Shown here piece by piece: positions 30,386 through 31,316 of a stretch of 64,000 nt of DNA; within the stretch, counting starts at the first letter, position 1, and each line of letters begins with the position of its first letter. Below the pieces are notes generated by a model, which saw nothing but the letters and a program-made list of their open reading frames with translations, was not told the origin of the DNA and searched no databases. Origin of the DNA: Eledone cirrhosa (lineage: Eukaryota); contig OZ024757.1 in NCBI GenBank assembly GCA_964016885.1, forward strand, positions 37,014,001 through 37,078,000, given 5' to 3'. The translations under genes and the position numbers were made by a program.

Positions 30386-31316
30386 CTGAGAAGTCCATGG
30401 TGGCGTTGATAGGGGAAGAGGTCGGAGATGTGGGTGTGGTCGGAGGGGAGTCCATTGGGTCATCGATAGAGGCCGGGGTTGCAGAAACGGGTGCATTTAT
30501 AGAGGTGTTTGTGATGGTGTTGTCAGTGATAGGGGCCGCAGACATGGGTACGATTGTCGTGGAGTTCGTGGTGGAGTTGATAGCGGTGGGAGCCACAGAT
30601 ATGGGTACGATTGTCGAGTAGTCCAGAGTAGTGTTGGTGGTATTGGTAGTAGCGGTAGATGTGGTCGTCGCAGAAGTGGTAGTAGATGCCGTCGAAGAGG
30701 TGTCCATGTAAGTGATGTTGTTGTTGATGGCGTTGGTGTTGGTCACAAATGTGGGCGCAGTTGTAGTGGGGTCCATGGTGGTGGTGTTAGGGACGATGGT
30801 CACACATGTAGACGCGGTTGAAGAGGTGTCCAGAGTGATGTTGGTAGGGATGATGGTCACACAAGTGGATGCGGTTGAAGAGAAAGAAATAGAGAGATAG
30901 AGAACATGAACGCGAAATAAAAGAAAGGGTAGACATTATAACCAACTACTTTACTGCGTAGACGGGGGTGTACTTTGTGCTACTGACCACACCTAACTGT
31001 AAAGGGGGTTCACTTTGGAGCCATGGCAAGTACTTGTGAAGACAAATGGCCTAGAGGTTAAGGTGCTGGACTTATGAAGACGAGGGGCCAAAATCTTGAT
31101 ATTTCTATAAGAAATGAAAATAAAGACAATAATATTCAAGTTAGAGTCTCGCTGTCTAAATATGTGGAAAGACTATCCTCACAATTTCAAAGCCCGGAAC
31201 TCCCTTTTGTGGTAAACCTTATGAAATGCTGCTGAGGGTTTGAGATTTGAAAATGCATGAGTCCCAAATACAGAAAATAACTCTAATAACCGTCAGTCAC
31301 TATAGATTAAGCTAAT

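Follow-up and report, generated by a model that had tools for sequence, protein, structure and literature searches.

Why should the last 558 nt of an octopus intron, a stretch in which A and G are both common, hold not a single AG dinucleotide? The question arises in a window of 64,000 nt from Eledone cirrhosa (assembly GCA_964016885.1, contig OZ024757.1, positions 37,014,001 to 37,078,000), the whole stretch of DNA that we analysed and to which all coordinates below refer. A first-pass annotation of this window had pointed out the AG-free stretch on the minus strand, and had proposed that it marks either a very distant branch point or an alternative start of the protein.

The host gene and its intron

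We examined the gene in which the stretch lies. Ten AG/GT-bounded exons in the window join into a 433-residue open frame that is 86% identical to the Octopus vulgaris protein P0001, and the first exon of the gene lies beyond the window. Seven exon matches were obtained, all of them at this locus, so the gene is single copy. It encodes a protein with a cysteine-rich ectodomain, one transmembrane segment and a cytoplasmic tail, which is conserved across molluscs, with relatives further off in an annelid and a nemertean. The intron from 32004 to 30386 lies downstream of the transmembrane exon, and joining its flanking exons in the normal way gives the sequence of the orthologues; the exon that follows (30385-30217) matches octopod proteins at 82-96%. 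The features used below, all on the minus strand, are as follows.

33473..33584, minus strand: exon of the transmembrane segment, with AG/GT ends and an in-frame join, corresponding to P0001 residues 127-170
32005..32032, minus strand: 28-nt exon upstream of the intron, with a phase-1 donor GTAAGT at 32004 and the junction as in P0001, P0003 and P0004
30386..32004, minus strand: intron of 1619 nt; reading through it gives a stop at 31843
30946..31005, minus strand: AG-dense stretch, 8 AG in 60 nt, directly upstream of the AG-free zone
30388..30945, minus strand: AG exclusion zone, 558 nt, AG count 0
30935..30940, minus strand: TATAAT, a candidate distant branch motif; its position is observed, its function is putative and it matches the consensus imperfectly
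about 30878..30934, minus strand: U-rich polypyrimidine tract, the only one inside the AG-free zone
30875..30877, minus strand: CAA closing the U-rich tract, a possible acceptor that would add 489 nt (163 codons) in frame with Ala as the first residue
30388..30874, minus strand: ACC/ACT-like block coding for Thr, Ser and Pro, internally repeated, AG-free, single copy, unstructured, with an unbroken frame
30217..30385, minus strand: 169-nt exon that opens the conserved cytoplasmic domain, with its acceptor AG at 30387-30386 and a U-poor local tract

Neither the orthologues nor seven exon frames scored above the Pfam cut-off, residues 196-300 had no usable match in the ESM Atlas, and a scan of metagenomes found no relative. 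Literature searches on the gene and protein accessions and on splicing, in cephalopods and in general, yielded no paper whose title or opening lines of the abstract concerned this case. We dropped a 33-nt candidate exon at about 33394-33363, which is absent in the orthologues and without which the frame of the gene joins. In two distant relatives, P0064 and P0078, the frame leading into the same exon is a hydrophobic stretch coded by pyrimidines, with no Thr-rich block, which suggests from the sequences that the intron position is conserved there with a normal acceptor. At the junction that corresponds to the exon start at 30385, P0012, an orthologue from a chiton, is shorter by four residues. 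A second AG lies in frame at 30377-30376 on the minus strand, 9 nt into the exon, and its use would remove three residues.

Extent of the AG-free zone and its occurrence by chance

The zone was found as it had been described: 558 nt on the minus strand between an AG at 30947-30946 and the acceptor AG at 30387-30386, holding 139 A, 64 G and 20 GA. At the other nine acceptors of the gene in the window, the AG-free zones measure 27-134 nt. The exon at 32763 has an acceptor with a 134-nt AG-free zone (32764-32900, minus strand) and an A/T-repeat tract of only 43% U.

Mononucleotide shuffles of the zone contained 16.0 AG on average, and none of the 20,000 was without any. Shuffling the order of the codons accounts for much of the deficit, as the mean is then 3.7 AG and no AG is left in 253 of 20,000 outcomes (p 0.013). 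The length of the zone by itself is also unremarkable in this genome. In 560 kb read on both strands (1.12 Mb), the sample held 135 AG-free runs of at least 300 nt, of which 59 reached 558 nt or more; these counts come from 56 of 57 loci of 10 kb, the locus L051 being left out since it lies inside the gene. The 6-mer complexity of the zone was 0.72, against a maximum of 0.59 among the 135 runs of at least 300 nt, and the longest sampled AG-free run with a complexity of at least 0.7 measured 254 nt.

We compared the block with 59 ACC/ACT control tracts of the genome. An A precedes none of the 58 G in the block, against 251 of 715 (35%) in the controls, a set that includes 11 loci chosen for similarity to the block, plus L051; the G counts of the block are not independent owing to its internal duplication, and one third of the counts gives p about 3e-4. 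Phase-specific control rates predict 12.4 AG in the block, where none was observed. Serine is encoded there by TCN codons throughout (AGY in 0 of 22), compared with 17 AGY codons of 43 in the exons of the gene, and codons starting with G stand after A in 0 of 32 cases, against 19 of 129 for other codons (Fisher p 0.015). One of the 18 control tracts with at least 15 G was likewise free of AG. NAA codons are missing from the block, as are NAG codons, so part of the deficit is not specific to AG. The absence of AG thus exceeds the rates of the ACC/ACT controls and is weaker under the codon-order shuffle; it is likely that composition does much and selection against AG does the rest.

Anatomy of the intron tail

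The first-pass annotation had placed a polypyrimidine tract far upstream of the acceptor, just after a TATAAT motif, and both were found there, the tract at about 30934-30878 and the motif at 30940-30935. Of the distant branch point built on them, the layout stood up: motif and U-rich tract lie at the 5' edge, 8 AG crowd the 60 nt upstream and AG is lost downstream. The branch itself is a prediction. The predicted branch A is 30936, about 551 nt before the exon, and the zone begins 10 nt before it. The best 30-mer of the tract has 18 U and 27 pyrimidines, and further downstream there are at most 9 U per 30 nt. Only 3 of 57 control tracts have a U-rich tract at their 5' edge.

The acceptor at 30387-30386 has 21% U at positions -30 to -3, compared with 43-82% at the nine other acceptors of the gene in the window. 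A motif scan found no CTRAY within 100 nt of it; going upstream, the first TRAY is met at 30462 and the first CTRAY at 30526. In the zone, CTRAY occurs only at 30790 (CTAAC) and 30526 (CTGAC), neither with a U-rich tract, so that even these alternatives would be distant branches. TATAAT fits TRAY and not CTRAY, and is a poorer match to the consensus than either of them. At the level of motifs, the last 40-60 nt hold no good combination of branch motif and tract. Looping-out of the block by a hairpin was ruled out by folding, which was less stable than in shuffles (z +2.54), 98 of 100 shuffles reaching at least the same stability.

Further upstream in the same intron, an acceptor-like U-rich tract with an AG lies at 31105-31135 on the minus strand, the next base being 31104. 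A join at 31104 would meet a stop after 15 codons, as in a possible poison pseudo-exon, and the contig of a sequencing run (contig 23 of run X4, see below) is unbroken there. The introns of the gene also contain very high-copy dispersed repeats at 31337-31730 and 32350-32613, which in the DNA runs reach contig depths as high as several hundred thousand and are probably SINE or MITE families.

The repeat block as an open frame

The block is stop-free in the frame of the exon, internally repeated and provided with in-frame ATGs, which bears out the earlier description. The frame of the downstream exon is open over 30935-30216 (240 aa), starting right after the TAA of TATAAT. It includes a 57-nt tandem unit in 2.5 copies (30740-30882) and five ATGs, at 30776, 30707, 30545, 30455 and 30398. 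None of the AGs from 31396 down to 30945, including the strong-looking one before 31104, joins the frame of the exon without a prior stop. The block has a G content of 11.5% and shows no switch of triplet phase at 37% divergence from the ACY pattern. The controls have 4.7 switches per 489 nt, and 7 of 21 long controls also have none, all of them less diverged. Copies 1 and 2 of the repeat differ by 4 synonymous and 7 non-synonymous codons. Phase and copy differences together are suggestive, not decisive, of a present or past coding use of the block.

A search with the 240 residues of block and exon found no homologue. It had been left open that the block might be a dispersed transposon fragment with copies elsewhere, and this identity was rejected: the block is single copy, and its 24 other genomic hits, counted with very common words skipped, are each at most about 165 nt long and centred on the triplet core. 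The DNA runs have one contig of depth 6-9 across 30150-31352. A mucin-type PTS domain, which would lie outside the cell, was rejected as well: the block comes after the exon of the transmembrane segment, and none of the in-frame ATGs is followed by a signal-like stretch.

Repeats of other kinds occur elsewhere in the window. Two adjacent, near-identical frames of about 300 aa at 61023-61937 and 62120-63025 on the plus strand carry a zf-RVT domain (PF13966) and are likely duplicated 3' ends of a non-LTR retrotransposon. A 1.9-kb microsatellite array of (TA/CA)n and (GA)n at 39985-41925 holds the longest AG-free run of the window on both strands.

An insert at the same junction in Octopus sinensis

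We looked for inserts at this junction in related proteins. Exactly there, isoform X1 of Octopus sinensis LOC115223032 (P0002; XP_036367969-71, three RefSeq accessions) carries an insert of 59 Thr-rich residues, in frame, and isoform X2 (P0005; XP_029649322) is without it. Such an in-frame extension of the exon is a third possibility for the block, one that the first-pass annotation had not raised. Among the 80 proteins that span the junction, of 96 fetched, this is the only large insert, the next largest having 12 residues. The short form being widespread, it is likely ancestral.

The O. sinensis insert consists only of T, A, S, D, N, P and I. It has no Lys, Glu, Gln or Arg, so AG is not needed to encode it. 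It shares with the block the gene, the junction, the residue alphabet, the frame, Ala as the first residue and a similar run of last eight codons. It differs in having 59 codons instead of 163, in being exonic by annotation and in lacking Met, and the E. cirrhosa window has no AG acceptor at the matching place. When the tail of the insert was anchored at its 3' end, it differed from the block by 5 base changes over 8 codons, a result equalled at 9 of 154 slid positions; a local alignment of insert and block was non-significant (241 of 2000 shuffles). Homology of the two is therefore put forward from position and composition. The insert is known from protein models only, and might turn out to be an independent cassette exon or an error of the gene model. 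Given the shared junction, and the CAA without an AG at the end of the U-rich tract here, it is likely that one segment serves as intron tail here and as optional exon in the relative.

Contigs from sequencing runs

Four sequencing runs cover the region, none of them recorded as RNA. In run X4, contig 22 lies on the exon 30217-30386 only, ending at its donor, with 1013 further letters elsewhere; from this confinement we infer that X4 is RNA. Contig 23 of the same run extends over 30357-31388, unbroken across 30875, 30946 and 31104 and with no other letter at 30875, and contig 28 covers 31631-32034. Intronic sequence including the whole block is thus present in the run and no alternative acceptor is visible, in contigs that come from a single run, drop rare forms and overlap the exons by 29-30 letters, under the bridging bar of 31. 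These contigs could reflect retention, nascent RNA, DNA carry-over or an internal start.

In a bin of the neighbouring intron (32614-32701), the cover of X4 was 0.73, compared with 27-32 in the DNA runs. Bin arithmetic points to a further X4 contig of depth about 28 over the first 30 bases of the exon, probably representing the spliced 32005-30385 junction, a junction that is absent among the X4 joints listed. The intronic contigs have depths of 13.5 and 5.9, against about 28 for this implied contig, figures that fit either retention with a 3' bias or an internal start; missing cover and contig depth cannot rank the parts of the gene, and the X4 depths are not counted as evidence.

Alternative explanations

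The zone may be a by-product of composition, a decayed ACC/ACT microsatellite that happens to contain no AG, with an ordinary branch point near the acceptor and no long scan. Long AG-free runs are indeed common here (59 in the 1.12 Mb sampled reach 558 nt), the 11 ACC/ACT loci matched by the block are centred on AG-free runs of 166-1238 nt, the codon-order shuffle gave a p of only 0.013, and PMC1431707 presents a human zone of 369 nt that a repeat has produced, its branch candidate lying at -17. The control tracts, however, acquire AG along with G (35% of their G follow A), whereas the block has 58 G and no AG, and its complexity is far above that of every sampled long run. The local tract is also the U-poorest of the gene, with no CTRAY within 100 nt, and a U-rich tract at the 5' edge, as here, recurs in just 3 of 57 controls. 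We consider this explanation unlikely.

Two further explanations give the block a coding role. It could be the intron tail in the full-length mRNA and also the coding start of a second transcript, one with its 5' end inside the intron, which would give a Thr-rich form without the transmembrane segment. The five in-frame ATGs, of which 30776 and 30398 are in good context, the unbroken triplet phase and the unbroken contig 23 of X4 are compatible with such a form. The mucin-like N-terminus that had been suggested for it was not upheld: the exon of the transmembrane segment (33584-33473) precedes the intron, and the only hydrophobic stretch lies upstream of 30776, where the in-frame ATGs begin, so the product would be cytosolic. 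Yet the O. sinensis insert has no Met and its isoform X1 retains the full N-terminus and the transmembrane segment; the contexts of the ATGs are simply a product of the ACC repeat; the repeat copies, with 4 synonymous and 7 non-synonymous differences, give no sign of protein constraint, at low power; and contig 23 reaches at least 440 nt upstream of the zone. An internal start thus seems rather improbable to us.

Alternatively, the CAA at 30877-30875 may act as an acceptor, either after A-to-I editing (AA to AI) or as a non-canonical site, and so add 163 Thr-rich residues to the cytoplasmic tail in some tissues. Cephalopods edit their RNA heavily, and acceptors created by editing exist in mammals. 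The CAA stands immediately after the U-rich tract and in frame, its use would put Ala first, as in the O. sinensis insert, and the frame beyond it is unbroken. An in-frame position arises by chance in one case of three, though, and the same CAA occurs in repeat copy 2 as part of the repeat unit. The best duplex, at -39.7 kcal/mol, falls within the span of 13 control windows (-28.2 to -56.5), and the site takes part in none of the 25 longest inverted repeats. Contig 23, of a kind that drops rare forms, is unbroken there with no A-to-G. We regard an edited acceptor as very unlikely. We give as little credence to a conditional exon extension, in which a branch about 550 nt upstream and a normal scan would be combined with CAA editing or an internal start that permits translation of the 163 codons; the extension would have a genomic acceptor in O. 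sinensis and a counterpart gated by RNA editing here.

A proposed reading: distant branch point with an AG-purged spacer

The reading that we favour, with slightly better than even confidence, is an intron with a distant branch point whose spacer is an AG-purged, repeat-derived segment, apparently an optional exon extension in a related octopus. An internal start or an edited acceptor would still need a distant branch for the short form, and distant branching as such, pooled over the readings that need it, is therefore quite probable. The branch would form close to the U-rich tract, some 550 bases before the acceptor, and the first AG met from there would be used. An ACC/ACT repeat block likely expanded between tract and acceptor in octopods, and its AGs were likely purged, since the splicing machinery would use any that arose. 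A shorter counterpart, annotated as exonic in O. sinensis, is likely spliced in there by way of an acceptor that directly follows the tract. The corresponding place in the window reads CAA, and the block is likely intronic, with the normal short protein being made. The intron 32004-30386 is probably removed slowly, and retained copies would end at the stop at 31843. If the block was never translated, its unbroken triplet phase is unexplained.

We compared the locus with known systems. The mapped cases of distant branch points in PMC1431707 lie 100-400 nt upstream. Its examples include PTB exon 11, with a zone of 381 nt and the branch at -351, nPTB (438 nt), GABBR1 exon 23 (287 nt) and a PTPRS candidate (1126 nt), and the same source notes that repeats can produce false AG exclusion zones. 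In common with the exons it presents, the octopus intron is AG-free up to the acceptor, has a branch-like motif and a U-rich tract at the 5' edge, becomes rich in AG again upstream and has no good local branch candidate. It differs from them in being from a mollusc, in a predicted distance of about 550 nt, greater than in the mapped cases, in its repeat-derived, open-frame spacer and in that no exon skipping is known. By analogy, and given its predicted branch, it may work like this vertebrate class.

Distal branch points have been linked to delayed splicing in PMC5378181. The X4 contigs over the 5' and 3' parts of the octopus intron fit late removal, a likeness that rests on contigs of one run of unrecorded type; most of the introns with distal branches in that source also branch in the usual zone. 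With the ACC/ACT microsatellites of the genome, as seen in the 59 controls, the block shares a C-rich triplet phase that reads as poly-Thr and is often AG-free for hundreds of bases. Unlike the controls, which mostly have few G, it combines 11.5% G and 37% divergence with no AG and no phase switch.

Introns with distant branch points are a known class, and what is new here is the O. sinensis insert at the same junction. If confirmed, the locus would be a mollusc case of scanning from branch to acceptor over about 550 nt. It would also provide a pair of species in which one segment is intron tail or optional exon, depending on one acceptor, and one could then test directly how the expansion of repeats, the purging of AG and the gain or loss of exons act on one another.
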